DNA of 64,000 nt from Eledone cirrhosa. Lineage: Eukaryota. The stretch is from NCBI GenBank assembly GCA_964016885.1, contig OZ024766.1, forward strand, positions 2,046,001 through 2,110,000. The letters run 5' to 3'. Numbering within the stretch: the first letter of the stretch is position 1; every line of letters begins with the position of its first letter. Below are positions 31,381 through 64,000 of this stretch, in pieces. The notes under the pieces were generated by a model. The model was not told where the DNA came from, ran no database searches, and saw nothing but the letters and a program-made list of their open reading frames with translations. Made by a program: the position numbers and the translations under genes.

Positions 31381-31394
31381 AATATATATATATA

Positions 31395-31810
31395 TGGAGG
31401 AGGTTATAGTTCACTTGAAGCATTGTGTAATGAGGTATAAACGTTTGAATATGTGTAATAAGGCCAAAACAATGCAGGTATGGACAAAGAAAAAAGAATG
31501 CAATAGTAAAAGATATTGTTGAGAATTTGTCTTTCACCTTGAATTTATTTAAATGTCCTTAATTTTCGAGATAATATCTCTTCTTCGGAGGGAAGTAAAG
31601 GTCTCAAACTGGATTGGCTAGAGATTTAAGACGCTGGTTTGAGACCTTTACTTCCCTCCGAAGAAGAGATATTATCTCGAAAATTAAGGACATTTAAATA
31701 AATTCAAGGTGAAAGACAAATTCTCAACAATATCTTTTACTATTGCATTCTTTTTTCTATGTCCATACCTGCATTGTTTTGGCCTTATTACACATATTCA
31801 AACGTTTATA
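31395..31810. mobile_element. Family E fold-back element (~175-bp inverted arms) with an HHR motif in each arm
   Basis: Arms 31436-31610 and 31637-31810; HHR CCT-CCGAAGA-A-GAGAT att ATCTC-GAA AATT A-AGG at 31655-31689 (+) and 31557-31591 (-); homologous to PLE termini at 60759-60976 and 62277-62447. Confidence 0.82.
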
Positions 31811-31830
31811 TATATATATATATATATTAT

Positions 31831-32033
31831 AAAGTGAGGTTTTTTTTTACAAAATGAAAAATAACCGAGGTGTCCTACACGAGTGGAAGTATAAGAAAAG
31901 AAGATGAAATCGAAAATGGAACTGGAGTCTTTTTTTTTTTAAATATATATTTATTTGGTTCCTTTAACGGTTTCGCAGTTCTTCTGCTTTTCAAAAGTAG
32001 AATTGAGATGGAGGGTCTGTGGTTTTTCTCACA
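31831..32033 (-). mobile_element. Family G element, second copy (HHR motif 31961-31998, partly mutated)
   Basis: Homologous to 13229-13443. Confidence 0.7.
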
Positions 32034-32585: not shown

Positions 32586-33106
32586 AATATAAGAAAAATG
32601 GAGTGCTGCGTGGTTGCACATAGGTTACATATGAATAAAATTAGTCCTTCATCAGTGATCTTCCAACCTTCATTGGTATTTCATCGCTTTAAAATTCATA
32701 TTCCTTTGGTTGGTGCGAGCAATAACTAAATAAAGTTATTGGGACAAGTAAAATAGGGTGAAGCTAGCGAGACATGTAAACAAACAAAGATGGTATTGCA
32801 ACGGAAAGATAGGAAGAGACAAGCTTAAGCTTGGTGAAATCATGGACGAGAGATACAGACCATCCGACCTGGGTGAGATGTGAGCGAGAAAAGGATTTCA
32901 CACAGGTCAAACGGGAGGAAGTGAGAGAGGGGGAGAAGCAGATAGTGAGGGAGTGGGAGTGTGAGGAAGAGGCCAGCCAGGAGAGAGAGTGTGACTGGCA
33001 GAGGGGGTGAAAAGAAGGAGAGAGATACAGAGAGAGGGGAAGCAGTAAGAAAGAAACAGACAGGTCGAAGCTGAGGAAAAAATATAAATATAAGAAAAAT
33101 GGAGTG
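32586..33106 (-). mobile_element. Family H element bounded by a ~20-bp direct repeat
   Basis: AATATAAGAAAAATGGAGTG at 32586 and ~33087; partial HHR-like CTGATGAAGGAC at 32644-32655. Confidence 0.5.
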
Positions 33107-34790: not shown

Positions 34791-35348
34791 AGAGGTGCCT
34801 ACTGATATATATAAATATAAATTCAGCGAGAATCGTATTTCAGCTGGTAGAAAAAGCGAAACGAAATGCAAAATCGTAGAAATGCTGGCAAGCGCTCCAA
34901 TAGTTAAGAAAACCAGAGCTAAACAATATGTTAAAACGCCATACAAACTGAAAAAGTGGTCAAGAAGGCATTAACCACCTAAGCCAAAAAACAAATCAAG
35001 CTAAACAGGTCAAACAAAATAAATGATAAAAACAGACCTGGACCCATTGGAATTGATGGTAAAACCCAAATGCAGGGTTTCTATGACACCTAAATCAATA
35101 ATACTGTCTGCTTAAAACTATGAGCTTTTAGCATAAAGATCGAACAAGGAATATCACGTTATCAACAGGTAATTCTGCTCTGTAACCAACTTTGTGAGTG
35201 ACGCAGAACTTTGTAAAAGCACATGTGTAAGTCACAGGGGAAAAAAAACCCAGATTTTGGCAAATGAATTCAGTATGTGTATATCATACAAAAAATTGCA
35301 TAGATAGCACAAATCGAATAAGCACTCAACCGGTGTATATATATACAT

Positions 35349-37109: not shown

Positions 37110-38230
37110 TCACCATAGCCACTGTAGAGAGGAAAAGCGCCTCTCTTTCGTTTTCGAAAGAGGCTGGCAGTTTGATCCTTACTAAGGACCCGGCAGTCAA
37201 CTGGATTTGTCCCATACGCGACAGCAGTTGTAGATAAATAGATAGATTTCTTTATTAGCCACAAGGGCGCACAAGAAAAGGGGACAAAACAAAGACATGC
37301 CGGGGATTTTACATACAGCAGTTGTAGATAGATAGATAGATAGATAGATAGGCAGATATGTTTCTTTATTAGCCACAGAGGCACAAAAGAAGGGGACAAA
37401 TACAAAGGGGGAAATTTACATACAATAAAAACGTCTAAAATACTATCACAAATGCAATTTAAAAATCAATCGATTTTCCCCAATAGGAAGAGGGGGGGGG
37501 GCATTACATATGGGTAACACATGCCCCCGAAAAAAATGTACAACCCTCATCTCCAGGGGTAGAAAGAGTGAGTACCCCTTTCCTCTCTTCCTTTTTTGCC
37601 TCAACCTACAGGCCTATATAGAGAGAAGGCCCATTCACTGGGGGCACCCTCGCCACTTTCACCCACCTTTCATAAAACTATCTGGGGTACAGCACCCCTC
37701 TCTCCACCCCGACTCTGGTATTTGATATAAAAAAGAACCAGTTGTTGGCCGGAGAGAAAGGTGTCTGACCTCAGCCCTTTCAACCTCGTCCACCATACAA
37801 CCCCTTTCGCCATAGCTCTCACACAAAGGAAAACCGCCTCTACTTCGTTTTTGAAGGGCGGGTGACGGTTTGGTCATGACAATGGACTCGGTGGTCAACC
37901 GGATTGGTCCCACCCGCGACAATAGTCGTTCTACATAGCCCCACAGGTCGGTGAGGCCTGGGCATGTGTATGAATGCGTGCGCGATGGTTTCCTCGTCGC
38001 GCACGCATCTTGGACAGATCTTTTTCGAAGGGTCCCTACCCGGGCGCCCGTGTCTGTAGAGCTTGTCTCGAACTGGTAGAGCTCCTCGGTAGCACTGCCA
38101 GACCAGGGACTTTTGGAAGTTGTCCATTGGTCCCGGGCGGAAGGTCCTACCGAACAGGCTGGCCAGTTCGTCCTCCTCTACGCCTAGAGTTTCTCCGAGC
38201 ATGTCGTCGCACTTGCTGCGGTATTTGGGA
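37110..38230 (-). mobile_element. Cluster of Tx1/L1-clade LINE 3' fragments (ORF2 C-terminal zf-RVT-like domain plus 3' UTR) in (GATA)n
   Basis: FQKSLVWQCYRGALPVRDKLYRHG...ICPRCVRDEETIAHAFIH, frameshifted continuation LSRVGPIRLTTESIV; 3' ends GGCTAATAAAGAAA plus (TCTA)n. Confidence 0.82.
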
Positions 38231-38446
38231 TAGAGAGAGCGAGAGGTGGAGAGAGATAGAGGCATGGTGGTGAGAGGAATAGAGGGGGAGGAGATGACAA
38301 AGAGATCAAGGTTGGTCTCTTCAGTACAGCAGGTGTACCACAGAAAATAGGTGACAGGTGTTTGTGGTGTTGTTGTTGTTGTTGGTGTTGACAGTTGTGC
38401 TGTTGATGTAGTTGTTGTTATATATATATGTGTGTGTGTGTGTGTC

Positions 38447-38621: not shown

Positions 38622-38815
38622 AACAAAGGAACCAGGTGGACCATAACGCACCAAAGTACTCAATACTTAGGGTAGTAGAGTGGGTAATAGGAACGAGTAG
38701 GACCCCGACGGCTGAGCTCAAGCCGTTTCGACGGCTAATTCGGGACTAAAATTTTAGTCCAGAATTAGCCGTCGAAACGGCTTGAGCTCAGCCGTCGGGG
38801 TCCTACTCGTTCCTA
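38622..38815. mobile_element. Family B fold-back element
   Basis: Arms turn at GGACTAAA-A-TTTTAGTCC. Confidence 0.8.
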
Positions 38816-38840
38816 TATATATATATATATATATATATAT

Positions 38841-40003: not shown

Positions 40004-40072
40004 TATATATATATATACACACACATATTTATATATACATATATATACATATATATACATATATATATAGAT

Positions 40073-40181
40073 AACGAAGGAAGTGTGATAAGGAACCAGG
40101 TGGACCATAACGCACCAGAGTACTCAAAATAACCGTCGGAACGGCTTGAGCTCTGCCGTCGGGGTCTTGAACATTTTCCTA
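40073..40181. mobile_element. Family B element, internally deleted
   Basis: Both termini present. Confidence 0.7.
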
Positions 40182-40206
40182 TATATATATATACACATAT
40201 ATATAT

Positions 40207-43564: not shown

Positions 43565-43735
43565 TATGTTTTGTATCTTTAACCGTTGGTCAGTCAATGA
43601 TAAACATTGATTGCCAAATAAATTAACTGTGGAGATATAAAAGATACAGAAGTGAAAACCAACCAAACACTGAGTGTGTTCTGTTGTTATTTCTGGCAAT
43701 ATTATAACAATATGACCCTCCCCAAGTTTAACAAT
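43565..43735 (+). mobile_element. Family I single-arm copy
   Basis: Matches the arms of 11797-12105. Confidence 0.75.
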
Positions 43736-43776
43736 ATATATATATATAGTGTAGGTGTATATATATATATATATAT

Positions 43777-59203: not shown

Positions 59204-60200
59204 ATATGTTGTCTGGTGTACCAGCTGCAATAAGAGACAGTAGAAGGGAGCTCGACTCTGGTATAGAGCACATCAAGTGTCTGTTCAGGTGAGGGTGGAA
59301 TAGCGGTAGATTTGAATTTAAAACGTTTCTGGTTCTTTGAGAAAAGACTCCACATGTACTGCGAATATATACATATATCCTGTTGATAAGCACAGAAGAT
59401 TTGGATATTTCACTCTTTTATTTCTATTCCATTTCGATTCTCTTTATTTTTCAATTCACATTCCACCGTTGCGAAACTTATTTAGGTTTCGAGGTTCAAA
59501 TTCGTCTACAGAACAGGTTTGAATTTTGAAATTTAAATCTGTCCAGGAATCATGGTCGTTGCCAATATAAGCTTGTCTTTATTGACTTGTATCGAGACAG
59601 ACAAATTGTATTCACTTTAATTAGTTTATTTCATTAATAGCTAACTTTGTCTGTTGCAATATAAACACATTTCGTGTTTATCATATATTTTAAATGTATT
59701 TAACTGCTCGGAAGAGCCCCTTCCTGGAGCTTAATTATTGTAAACGACTGAGAGTTTATTCTCAAAATATAATATAACATATATATATATAGGTATGTAT
59801 GTATATATATTTCGGCGAGTAGAAAAAGCGAAACGAAACGCAAATTATATATATATATATATATATATTGGCTTTTTGCTACAATGTTTTCTCTACCTTT
59901 CATTTATATATATACGTGGGAAAGTGAAAAATCGGAGAATAGACCGTTAAAACATGTTTATTTAAAATATCACCTACGTACGCTCTGCTAACACTCTAGC
60001 CCACTAAATATTAACACTTCGAATATTTAATACTGCCGGCACTAGTATCGAGCACCTTTGGCATACGCTACTTGGCAAATAACTATATGTATCACCTATC
60101 CCTCCTTTTTCTCTCTTTCTCGATACGTAAATACTATATATATATAATTTGCGTTTCGTTTCGCTTTTTCTACTCGCCGAAATTATATTTATATATATAT

Positions 60201-60513
60201 AGGAAAAAGTATGACCCCGACGGCTTGAGTTCTGTCAGCCGTCGGGGCCATACTTTTTCCTATTACCCACTCTACTACCCTAAGTATTGAGTACTTTGGT
60301 GCGTTATGGTCCATCTGGTTCCTTACCACACTTCCTTCGTTATATATATATATATATATATAACGAAGGAAAAGTGGTAAGGAAGCAGTCAAGTCAAAGT
60401 GGTAAGGAAGCACCAAAGTACTCAATACTTAGGGTAGTAGAGTGGGTAATAGGAACGAGTAGGACCCCAACGAAACAGCTTGAGCTCAGCCGTCGGGGTC
60501 CTACTCGTTCCTA
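60201..60513. mobile_element. Two family B fold-back elements, tail-to-tail across a (TA)n tract
   Basis: 60201-60341 and 60362-60513 in opposite orientation. Confidence 0.78.
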
Positions 60514-61137
60514 TATATATATGTATATGTATATATACATATAAGAAGAGTGACATAGTTCGCTATACAATAAAGGCTTTATTCACACTGCCGGCAATTG
60601 TTTCTTTGATCTGGCAGGTCTGGAGGTCGCTCTCCAGTACTTTGTTTATAACCAGTCGTTTTAATCAGAGCACACGAAAATCTATATATAGATGTATGTA
60701 TATGTGTATATATATATATATATGTATGTATGTATATGTGTATATATATATGTATGTATGGAGGAAATTGTAGTTTACTTGAAACATTGCGTAGTTAGGT
60801 ATAAATGTTTGGAGTTAGAAGGCCAAGACAATACAGGTATGGATATAGAATATAAATACAAATGCAAAAGATATTGTTGACAAATAGTCTTTTACCTTAA
60901 ACTTATTCGAATATCCTTAATTTTCGAGATAATATCTCTTCTTCGGAGGGAAGTAAAGGGGTTAATCCAGTGTTCTTAATTAGCTTGCCAAGTCATGCTG
61001 ACAGGAAATAGTATAGAAATTCCATTCTATTTCTAATGTCAAAGAGTGAAGGTTAGGTGGATAGAGGGTTGTCTTCCTTTAAAAAGGCGTTTGGGAGAAC
61101 ACGTGACGGTGTAACCATGCGTGTGTGAAAGGACATG

Positions 61138-61468
61138 TCATCGTCATTTACGTCCGCTTTTTCCCTGCTTGCAAGGGTGGGACGGGAACTGATTCTGGCT
61201 TGATTTCTACAGCTGGATGCCCTTCCTAACACCAACCTCATTTACAGTGAGTGCTGGGTGCTTTTTTGCGTGGCACCTCCACGACCACTTTGCAGTGGAA
61301 TGATAGGGACCCCAGTCCCTATCATCTCAGTTCTACAGCTGAGTAAACTGGAGCAATGTGAAATAAAGTGTCTTGCTCAAGGAAACAACACATCACCTGG
61401 TCTGAGAATTGAACTCACAACCTTTCGATTGCAAGGCCAATGCTCTAACCACTAAGCCATGTGCCTCC
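61138..61468 (-). mobile_element. SINE family 1, full length, nested in the PLE 3' region
   Basis: Sequence similarity; lies between the GIY-YIG ORF end and the terminal repeat. Confidence 0.9.
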
Positions 61469-61472
61469 ATGT

Positions 61473-62275
61473 TTATATGTAAATTGTAAATGTGGGGGCT
61501 TTATTGATTGTTGGTTGTGTTTTGTCTATAAGTGCTTCTTTAATTCTAAGATTGCCGAGGTTTCTTTCCTTAGCTTCTATCCTAACTATTATGTTTTTGC
61601 ATTTCACTAGATATTTCTTAAATGAGGAAGCGTTAGTATTGAGGTGTTCTTTTATTCTAATGTGAAGCGGCCTGGTGGTGCTACCCATGTAGAAATTGCT
61701 GCATTTGTCGCACTCTAATCTGCATACGACGTAAGCCTGGTGGCATAGGTCTGTGTCGTCGATGGGGCAGTTGGCTAGACTGCAGCGGTTGTCATGTGTA
61801 GTGGAGTGTCTTTTGGTTAGCTGTCCGCGTAGAGAAGGCCCTGAGCGGGCTAGCTGGATATCTAGTCCCTCTCGTCTGATAGCTCTGCGGATGGCCGTTG
61901 TTGTTTCGTCACTGAAGTGTGGGAGCTTCAGGAAGCAGGTGTTAGTGCCTCGGGTGTGGTGTCCTCTGTTGTTTCTGGCATGGCTCACGGTGGACCTCGG
62001 GTATCCGTTAGGCTTAAGTACTTCCAGGAAGTATGTGGTATGTGCGTCTCGGCCTCTTGCGTTGGTGCATTTGTTCCAGTTACGTGTTAGTTCCTTCTTT
62101 ATGTATCCGAACTTAGCGCTGGCTGCTTTTTTTTATAGAAGCAGGTGTGGATGTCGCCTGCCTCTGTTACCCTGAGCTGGAAGTCTAATAGGGATCCGTG
62201 TATTCCCTGCTGGAGAATGCCATGTATATTTTATCCGCTTCTTCACGGGATGAGTATGTCATCTACATATCGGGT
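61473..62275 (-). pseudogene. PLE RT-thumb/GIY-YIG coding remnant (frameshifted)
   Basis: Motifs as above; a stop and frameshifts follow RYVDDI. Confidence 0.85.
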
Positions 62276-62737
62276 TAGAACACTGGATTAACCCCTTTAC
62301 TTCCCTCCAAAGAGATATCTCGAAAATTAAGGATATTTAAATAAATTTAAGGTAAAAGACTAATTGTCAGCAATATCTTTTGCATTTGTATTTATATTCT
62401 ATGTCCATACCTGCATTGTTTTGGCCTTCTAACTCTAAACGTTTATATATATGTGTGCATGTGTATATATATATACACATACATACATCACCTAGCCACT
62501 GTGTACAAACAGTCTCTTTTTAGTAACAACTAACTATTACTCCTACCACCACTACTACTACTATCACCTGTTCTATAATTAAGTGTCCAGTTAACAATCA
62601 AAGAAATGACCTCAATGAACTTGTCCCCACCACCACCAGCCCACCCCACCCCAACACGTGTCCACTACTGTATATTATACATCTGCCCCACTCAATTCCC
62701 CCCCCCCCTCACCCAACCATATATATATATATATATA

Positions 62738-62900
62738 TAAGAACCAGTAAGACCCCGACAGCTGAGCTCAAGCCGTTTCGACGGAGTCCAGAATTAGCCG
62801 TCGGGGTCTTACTGGTTCTTATTACCCACTCTACTACCTCAAGTATTGAGTACTTTGGTGCGTTATGGTCCACCTGGTTCCTTACCACATTTCCTTCGTT
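62738..62900. mobile_element. Family B fold-back element
   Basis: Both arms share the private variant AAGAACCAGTAAGACCCC / GGGGTCTTACTGGTTCTT. Confidence 0.8.
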
Positions 62901-63699: not shown

Positions 63700-63716
63700 C
63701 ACACATATATATCAAG

Positions 63717-63843
63717 TTTAATATAGAAATGTTTTATTCAAAAGAATTCATCTGGAAATATTTCCTGATGATTTCTTTTGAACGAATCAAAACAGTTCTA
63801 GTCCTGTAGAAGCCATTTCTATATTAAATATTTATACTCTGCT
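63717..63843. mobile_element. Family A fold-back element, degenerate HHR
   Basis: TTCAAAAGAATTCATCTGGAAA-TA-TTTCCTGATGATTTCTTTTGAA, then CAGTTCTAGTCCTGTAGAAGCC. Confidence 0.7.
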
Positions 63844-64000
63844 ATGTATTGAGTACCTTACTGTGGTTACAATACATCTCTCATAATATCAAATCTATGA
63901 GATTTCGATATTATATATTTTGAGGAAAATGCCATAACAAAGTATGAGCAACTGGTTATGGCCAGTTTAAATGCTAAAAGGTTAAGTAGTATTTGCAATG

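Follow-up and report, generated by a model that had tools for sequence, protein, structure and literature searches.

Insertions of family E

The window, i. e. the whole stretch of 64,000 nucleotides from Eledone cirrhosa that was analysed here, has a GC content of 38% and is dense in microsatellites and interspersed repeats. The locus at positions 31396-31810 is a palindrome of 415 bp that is flanked by two (TA)n runs. It consists of two terminal repeats (pLTR) of a Penelope-like element (PLE) that lie head-to-head in (TA)n, and only one of them carries a tail of 40 nt. The features of this locus and of a second insertion of the same family, designated E, are as follows:

31383..31395, no strand: left (TA)n target flank
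31396..31435, minus strand: tail of the long-ended arm, 40 nt, with the likely ORF start inside
31436..31606, minus strand: body of the long-ended pLTR arm, hammerhead-like core at 31588-31564
31607..31810, plus strand: tail-less arm including the central loop, hammerhead-like core at 31658-31682
31807..31810, plus strand: TATA common to the element and the (TA)n target at the proximal site, 4 nt
31811..31827, no strand: right (TA)n target flank
60760..62447, minus strand: second insertion, with tail (60760-60799), pLTR, 5'-truncated ORF and inverted tail-less arm (62277-62447)
61473..62132, minus strand: C-terminal portion of the PLE ORF, comprising the post-RT region, the Cys linker and the GIY-YIG endonuclease, by homology to relatives

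In the second insertion, which is split by a SINE at about 61147-61484, the pLTR at 60800-60976 is faced by an inverted and 5'-truncated upstream copy at 62277-62447, and the same arrangement is found at 31436-31810. The 40-nt tail is open from an ATG and overlaps the start of the ORF, as is typical of endonuclease-bearing (EN+) PLEs. The likely start codon of the first insertion is the ATG at 31423, which opens nine codons; within these codons, the tails at 31396 and 60760 show five differences, of which three are synonymous and two are L/F exchanges. The tail-less arm of the first insertion extends further to the 5' side than its tailed partner and thus includes the central loop (31606-31640). 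When this 35-nt loop was compared to the sequence that naturally lies upstream in the copy with the ORF, it matched on the plus strand only (score 32 vs 17), with P=0.0006 for the orientation of the tail-less arm vs 0.56 for the opposite one (5000 shuffles).

Several other repeats are present in the window. A repeat of 250 bp with (TA)n on both sides occurs at 13229-13434 and 31831-32033 (91% identity), the latter directly beyond the short end of the first family E insertion. A SINE-like repeat, presumably a cephalopod SINE with a tRNA-type head, is abundant (61147-61484 and many other sites), and most of its ten heads listed adjoin TA-rich sequence. Further retroelement-like ORF remnants are located at 1787-2548 and 37840-38445, both on the minus strand; the latter shows weak similarity to zf-RVT, with a score that does not reach the curated cut-off.

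Affiliation of the elements

A Pfam scan of the PLE ORF in the window returned no family (0), and the ORF was characterized by its relatives. Among 1.84 billion representatives, 757 relatives were detected at E<=0.001. Seven of them were scanned: all seven have a GIY-YIG domain at the C-terminus (the curated cut-off was reached in three), and six also contain RVT_1. The order of RVT_1 followed by a C-terminal GIY-YIG is the domain order of EN+ PLEs. The ORF in the window corresponds to the C-terminal part of about 210 amino acids of these proteins, and the RT core is missing from this copy, lost by 5' truncation. Judged by the RT and the C-terminal GIY-YIG domain of its relatives, family E is an EN+ Penelope-like element. 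The ORF shares 57% identity with the GIY-YIG protein P0001 of Octopus bimaculoides, its only named relative, and this match would by itself point to a cephalopod origin; only residues 56-267 of the 958 residues of this protein match, and the rest appears to be an unrelated low-complexity protein that was fused by gene prediction.

In the protein encoded in the window, the nuclease is preceded by a Cys linker with the spacing C-x4-C-x7-C, and the relatives are similar. On this linker, the protein may fit the Neptune/Nematis type rather than Poseidon or Hydra; the linker of Neptune and Nematis, however, reads CX2-5CxxC. The Penelope/Poseidon clade, which has no Cys linker, was rejected as a candidate because of this linker. 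The Hydra clade, in which CCHH is absent and the linker reads CxCX5C, was rejected as well: a CxxC lies inside the GIY-YIG core, and the spacing of the linker differs.

A pattern scan, performed with what we take to be the hammerhead core and run with no chance control, identified a hammerhead-like core with stem II in the families E, A, F, F2, G and H (11 of 17 rows). The core of family E carries a C-for-U variant. Among the 150 matches listed out of 810 in an Rfam scan there was no hammerhead; all of them were hits of miRNA models to hairpins and TA repeats that scored below the respective gathering thresholds. For the families B, D, J and I, neither an ORF nor a complete hammerhead core was found within the window. 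Family B appears to be tied to the PLEs by the homology of its tail to that of family A and by its ORF-like tail, D and J are placed among the PLEs only by their architecture, and the assignment of family I is doubtful. The tails of E, B and D are all open from an ATG, and in the tail of B four of the six codons that vary among seven copies differ only synonymously. These open tails with synonymous variation agree with the published organization in which the pLTR plus the tail cover the start of the ORF (PMC8557442, PMC3846280, accessible parts).

Related insertions in the window

In addition to family E, the window contains the following insertions:

11517..11721, minus strand: family B two-armed insertion with a tailed and a tail-less arm
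13632-13798, 38623-38816, 40070-40182, 45241-45361, 51522-51715, 60199-60341, 60364-60514 and 62737-62900: further family B insertions; that at 40070..40182 (minus strand) has a tailed arm cut inside the tail and no sequence common to both arms
11754..12107, minus strand: two-armed insertion of family D with a 4-nt overlap and a tail of 43 nt; another short end of this family lies at 43737
12124..12356, plus strand: family F2 two-armed insertion, 7-nt overlap, hammerhead-like core on the tail-less arm
4890..5091, minus strand: family F insertion with a hammerhead-like core, a tail of about 70 nt and an inverted arm that is very short; another short end of this family lies at 56026
13462..13577, plus strand: family A two-armed insertion, a counter-example to the TA rule discussed below
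63713-63915, 52787-52849 and 2846-2923: further family A copies
32593..32752, minus strand: family J long arm with a 36-nt tail; short end at 4876, 4-nt overlap
27062..27180, minus strand: long arm of family G; the short end of this family, at 55781, has an overlap of 3 nt

Less regular structures were also observed. Family H (51150-51273 and 12403-12482) combines a hammerhead-like core with two ends in (TA)n that are identical, i. e. only one type of end was seen. Family I is a short inverted pair (59811-59845 and 60147-60181) with TA on both sides that encloses about 290 bp; a longer copy is located at 34837-34960, and the family may represent a DNA-transposon-like element rather than a PLE. 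At 27062-27237, the long arm of family G is joined via a common TTTCC to a B body at the inner site of B, and this chimera, possibly the product of a template jump between families, is closed by a tail-less B arm of 20 nt, so that one tailed and one tail-less end are again present. At 60199-60514, two B insertions lie tail to tail around one (TA)n run (60341-60362), and the second of them has a small duplication within its tail. An inverted pair of 40 bp at 53281-53364 faces inward around (TA)6 and ends in TTCCTAT as the short ends of B do; neither another copy nor a hammerhead core was found for it. A fragment of a B tail at 53706-53805 is followed by two copies of a motif resembling the short end of D, each of which runs into TA. 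Finally, single-armed copies of D, G and J (43574-43737, 55717-55781 and 4705-4876) terminate at the inner site, and no tailed partner is evident for them; this suggests that the inner site can prime alone.

Junctions of the short arms

A sequence-only reading of this DNA had stated that the short arm stops at an internal TAT(A) that merges with the (TA)n target, and that this applies to the three unrelated families E, B and A. For family E, this description is correct: both short arms (31810 and 62447) end at TATA with a 4-nt overlap to the target (2/2 ends), and the continuation of the long arm by about 40 bp corresponds to the tails at 31396-31435 and 60760-60799 of 40 nt each. Similarly, all ten short ends of B stop at the same internal TAT with a 3-nt overlap, and the additional 75 bp or so ascribed to the long arm are reflected by tails of 77-78 nt in six of the eight long arms scored; the two other tails scored, which contain indels, have 64 and 85 nt. 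Family A does not obey the rule. Its three short ends differ from each other, with overlaps of 1, 0 and 0 nt and four unmatched nucleotides at one of them, and they run past the internal TATAT rather than stopping there. Moreover, neither of the long arms of A (13575, 63819) ends at the ACTCTG that had been proposed as its terminus: the first is cut by a SINE 3' fragment (match at 13576-13624), and the second continues into sequence homologous to the tails of B and F. A fourth end of A, located at 2846, lies within the tail, at a TAT of 3 nt. The families also proved not to be unrelated, since the tails of A and B are homologous (p=0.0025 vs shuffles); A-B was among 45 pairs tested, of which seven reached p<0.03, and A-F and F-F2 are related as well.

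In the six added families, the overlaps are 4 nt for D (2/2 ends), 4 nt for J, 3 nt for G, 2 and 0 nt for F, 7 nt for F2 and 0 nt for I, the values for G, J and one of F being measured by comparing different insertions. The TA rule thus holds in two of the three original families and also in D, J, G and F2, and the tails range from 36 to 91 nt across the families. The short ends are identical in E, B and D (14/14; overlap of 3-4 nt) and variable in A and F (overlap of 0-2 nt). As an overlap of k nucleotides hides a scatter of k nucleotides, this pattern of uniformity is suggestive only; the outer ends are as uniform as the inner ones.

One arm may have lost its tail once the element had inserted, if slippage or a deletion removed the sequence from the internal TA to the flank. 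Such losses could explain the single cases of J, G and F2 and the mid-tail end of A at 2846, and they are unlikely for B, D and E: the short ends of B lie at one single base, exactly one arm is always affected, and an equal TAT at +24 is never used. As a general explanation we find tail loss scarcely credible. A second possibility is that the short end arose once per family and was inherited, with transcripts that end in (UA)n read-through priming by long pairing, so that the overlap would be the relic of a founder. This would account both for the identical ends within a family and for the enrichment across families, and no copy in the window runs from the pLTR into the ORF, leaving the source RNA unseen. 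However, the ends of A and F vary between copies, and the conserved ORF starts in the tails suggest that the source RNA is a tandem one and extends beyond both sites. Internal starts also occur in vitro on continuous RNA (PMC11167929, accessible part), and we judge the inherited junction to be distinctly unlikely.

Overlap with the target and position of the inner site

The overlap was compared to null models in which the breakpoint may fall at any position of the long arm of the same family up to 20, 40 or 80 nt away from the site, run both with a random phase of the repeat and with its best phase. Nine families with both types of ends were scored; H, K and L, which have one end type only, were excluded, and the doubtful family I was included and counted as a miss. 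In the original families A, B and E, the summed overlap is 8 nt vs 2.7-3.1 nt expected at random phase (p=0.02-0.04), and p is 0.11-0.19 under the best phase. An overlap of at least 3 nt is present in six of the nine families, while 1.0-1.1 are expected at random phase (p~1e-4) and 2.1-2.3 under the best phase (p of 0.005-0.007). For the six added families, the sum of the overlaps is 20 nt vs 6.1-6.4 nt (p of 0.0004-0.002) at random phase and vs 10.6-11.2 nt (p of 0.01-0.025) under the best phase. If the overlaps of F, A and I are all taken as zero, the p value of the holdout sum under the best phase rises to 0.04-0.08. If related families are collapsed, four out of five unrelated ones overlap by at least 3 nt (p of 0.0006-0.009); with A as the representative of the related group, the count is four out of six (p of 0.002-0.05, and 0.03-0.05 under the harshest null). 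Thus, the excess of TA overlap is probably real but modest, and it rests on few independent units.

It had also been proposed that TA microhomology defines the second junction. The enrichment of such microhomology stands and extends to the added families, whereas its defining role is unsupported. Every family with an overlap has other TA runs of at least 3 nt within 40 nt that are not used: equal runs lie at -13 and +31 in E, at +24 in B and at four other positions in D, and the short ends of A lie between an unused TATAT and an unused TATA. Relative to a common CTCT motif, the breakpoints are found at -9..-6 in B, at -11..-10, -7 and -8 in A, at -9..-7 and -8 in F, and at -10..-3 in F2, so that the short ends of these four families would all fit a start lying 7-10 nt upstream of CTCT, with or without TA. 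Both the unused runs and this rule of position across related families indicate that TA microhomology does not define the junction. The strong form of the proposal, in which the internal TAT(A) itself would set the junction by annealing, can draw on E, B, D, J, G and F2, which all stop at TA runs of 3-7 nt; already largely refuted by family A, it is very improbable. Overall, the earlier interpretation is partly supported: the inner site is set primarily by position, and the role of pairing is permissive. RNA folding around the inner site of seven long arms revealed no common structure (unpaired probability of 0.13-0.76).

If position is primary, pairing may play no role at all: two fixed start sites, as in the anole element discussed below, would suffice, and the TA overlap would be incidental to AT-rich ends that adjoin a TA target. 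The long arms are indeed 63-71% AT with the exception of B, the ends of A and one end of F lack an overlap (0-1 nt) and are yet found at the same position as those of B, F and F2, and non-homologous initiation has been found in the accessible part of PMC11167929. On the other hand, null models built from the families' own flanking sequence still show the excess, also for the holdout families, and B has an AT content of just 51% and, within 40 nt, only one TA run besides that at its inner site. We consider the idea that pairing is irrelevant unlikely.

Relation of the two arms

The set of two-armed insertions comprises 16 cases (nine of B, two of E, two of A, and one each of D, F and F2); that of F, with a short arm of less than 20 nt, is the least secure. 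A hand count showed that all of them have exactly one tailed and one tail-less end. The two arms of an insertion resemble each other more than they resemble the equivalent arms elsewhere: in E, 17 alignment columns are split by insertion and none by arm type, and in B there are five mismatches within insertions vs 16.0 after permutation (P=0.0012, all permutations, n=8 insertions). The private variants common to both arms indicate that the arms of one insertion come from the same source.

This common source would also result if one arm were copied from the other by self-priming or fold-back, and the second end were shortened, either by the endonuclease or in the course of end joining where TA overlaps; such proposals have been made for PLEs (PMC3846280, PMC8557442, accessible parts). 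The junctions often lie in hairpin stems, and in seven of the 16 insertions the tail-less arm is nested in or tied with the tailed arm. However, in the remaining nine the tail-less arm holds sequence that is absent from the tailed arm (B13632, B40070, B45241, B51522, B60364, B62737, E31396, A13462 and F2; B51522 and F2 were read by eye, and A13462 is a weak case), and either arm can be the longer one. In B40070, the tailed arm stops inside the tail and has no sequence in common with its partner. The arm extents of B40070, B45241, B51522 and B60199, which contain indels or hairpins, were read from printed sequences. The extra sequence on the tail-less arms argues against fold-back unless later deletions produced it, and we regard fold-back as unlikely. 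Moreover, all nine B centres differ, which indicates that each of them was made anew.

A model for integration

The one-sided extension that had been read from the sequence is well supported, as is the assignment to PLEs, and this asymmetry is already part of the published PLE anatomy. An internal priming event at the second junction is likewise supported as a reading of the ends. The anatomy, the overlap enrichment and the arm patterns are observed in the window, and from them we infer every biochemical step of the following model. Probably, if with limited confidence, the insertions arise by twin priming, in which both nicked strands start synthesis on the RNA, at two fixed sites, and short pairing is permissive. 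They would be 5'-truncated EN+ PLEs in (TA)n, and the element RNA would have two fixed start sites for the RT, one at the outer and one at the inner edge of the tail, by analogy with another PLE in vitro. The GIY-YIG nuclease may cut both strands of (TA)n. One target 3' end would then prime at the outer site and yield the tailed arm, and the other one would prime at the inner site and yield the inverted tail-less arm; both arms would be copied from the same RNA or from RNAs of the same source, as the junction patterns suggest. Each cDNA would stop early, often in the stem of the putative hammerhead, and the two cDNAs would be joined head to head. The ribonucleoprotein may fix the inner site to within a few nucleotides: if the RNA offers 3-7 nt of alternating U/A there, the primer would pair and the ends would be uniform, and without such a run the ends would scatter by a few nucleotides.

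This model is based on the strict pairing of a tailed with a tail-less end, the private variants, the non-nested arms, the unique B centres, the excess of overlap, the ends that are uniform in E, B and D and variable in A and F, and the in vitro properties of a PLE protein (PMC11167929, see below). Against it stand the seven tail-less arms that are contained in their partners, as fold-back would also produce them, and asymmetric deletion of palindrome centres after insertion, which could mimic non-nesting. Moreover, the significance of the overlap weakens under the harshest null (p=0.03-0.05), and the evidence comes from one 64-kb window.

It is tempting to extend the model and to propose that programmed twin priming is the normal mode of PLE integration. 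A protein dimer would load both nicked (TA)n ends on one RNA with two sites 36-91 nt apart, one primer at each, and at least the inner primer would be aligned by telomerase-like pairing of 3-7 nt that has evolved to match the microsatellite target. We regard this extension as possible, though we would sooner doubt it than assert it. If it is true, the microsatellite bias, the one-sided tail and the inverted repeat would all follow from a single step.

Comparison with known systems

The element class and the asymmetry of its ends are in themselves ordinary. The one-sided tail, the inverted pLTR, the (TA)n bias and the mapping of the tail between two RT starts are already known. As far as the accessible parts of PMC8557442 and PMC3846280 go, EN+ PLEs share with the elements described here the head-to-head arrangement with an inverted 5'-truncated pLTR, a tail at one end that contains the ORF start, a hammerhead motif in the pLTR (here a hammerhead-like core in some of the families) and, in clades with a Cys linker, (TA)n targets; they differ in the length of the tail, which is reported as 30-40 nt as compared to 36-91 nt here. 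There, the tail and the palindrome are ascribed to endonuclease resolution or self-priming, and neither a TA overlap nor non-nested arms are reported; PMC3846280 mentions microhomology for 5' junctions and deletions, and 'twin' and 'microhomolog' do not occur in PMC8557442 (0 occurrences). In the open-access texts consulted, neither twin priming nor microhomology with the target was found to have been suggested for the ends of these PLEs. The origin of the inverted repeats, the one-sided tails and the microsatellite bias of PLEs is named as an open question in the accessible part of PMC8557442. The strict pairing of tailed and tail-less ends together with the non-nested arms is the more valuable result of this work, and it favours programmed twin priming over fold-back.

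A biochemical precedent is Poseidon of Anolis carolinensis (PAc). According to the accessible part of PMC11167929, the PAc protein is predicted to dimerise, cleaves and extends both strands of an AT-rich target, and uses two internal RT start sites that bound the genomic tail. The starts are reported there to have no homology to the target and no strand preference, whereas six of the nine families in the window overlap their target by at least 3 nt and each site is used exactly once. Moreover, the window protein has a Cys linker that is absent from Penelope and Poseidon. As the in vitro assay already exists, our claim is directly testable.

In twin or dual priming of L1 (PMC2837659, accessible part), an inverted cDNA is started by the second target strand after annealing within the RNA, and the junction with the target shows microhomology. 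The PLEs studied here share the inverted arm from the same RNA, or from RNAs of the same source, as judged by the private variants, and the junction microhomology, as judged by the excess of overlap. The other traits of the L1 pattern, a variable internal site and arms that usually do not overlap, are not seen: in the window, each family has a fixed site, the two arms overlap as a rule, B40070 is the only non-overlapping case, and the structure is common, with 16 cases in 64 kb. If the patterns hold genome-wide, coordinated two-strand priming would replace fold-back as the explanation for these ends.

Finally, in the telomeric EN-minus PLEs known as Terminons, priming is helped by short pairing between RNA and target just downstream of the hammerhead motif, similar to what is proposed here. 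They have no fused endonuclease and pair with telomeric repeats, and in the accessible part of PMC6431247 such a 3' structure is stated for telomere-associated PLEs only; the elements described here overlap by 3-7 nt with an internal (TA)n. If this holds throughout the genome, PLEs that target microsatellites would use short pairing between primer and template much as their telomerase relatives do.
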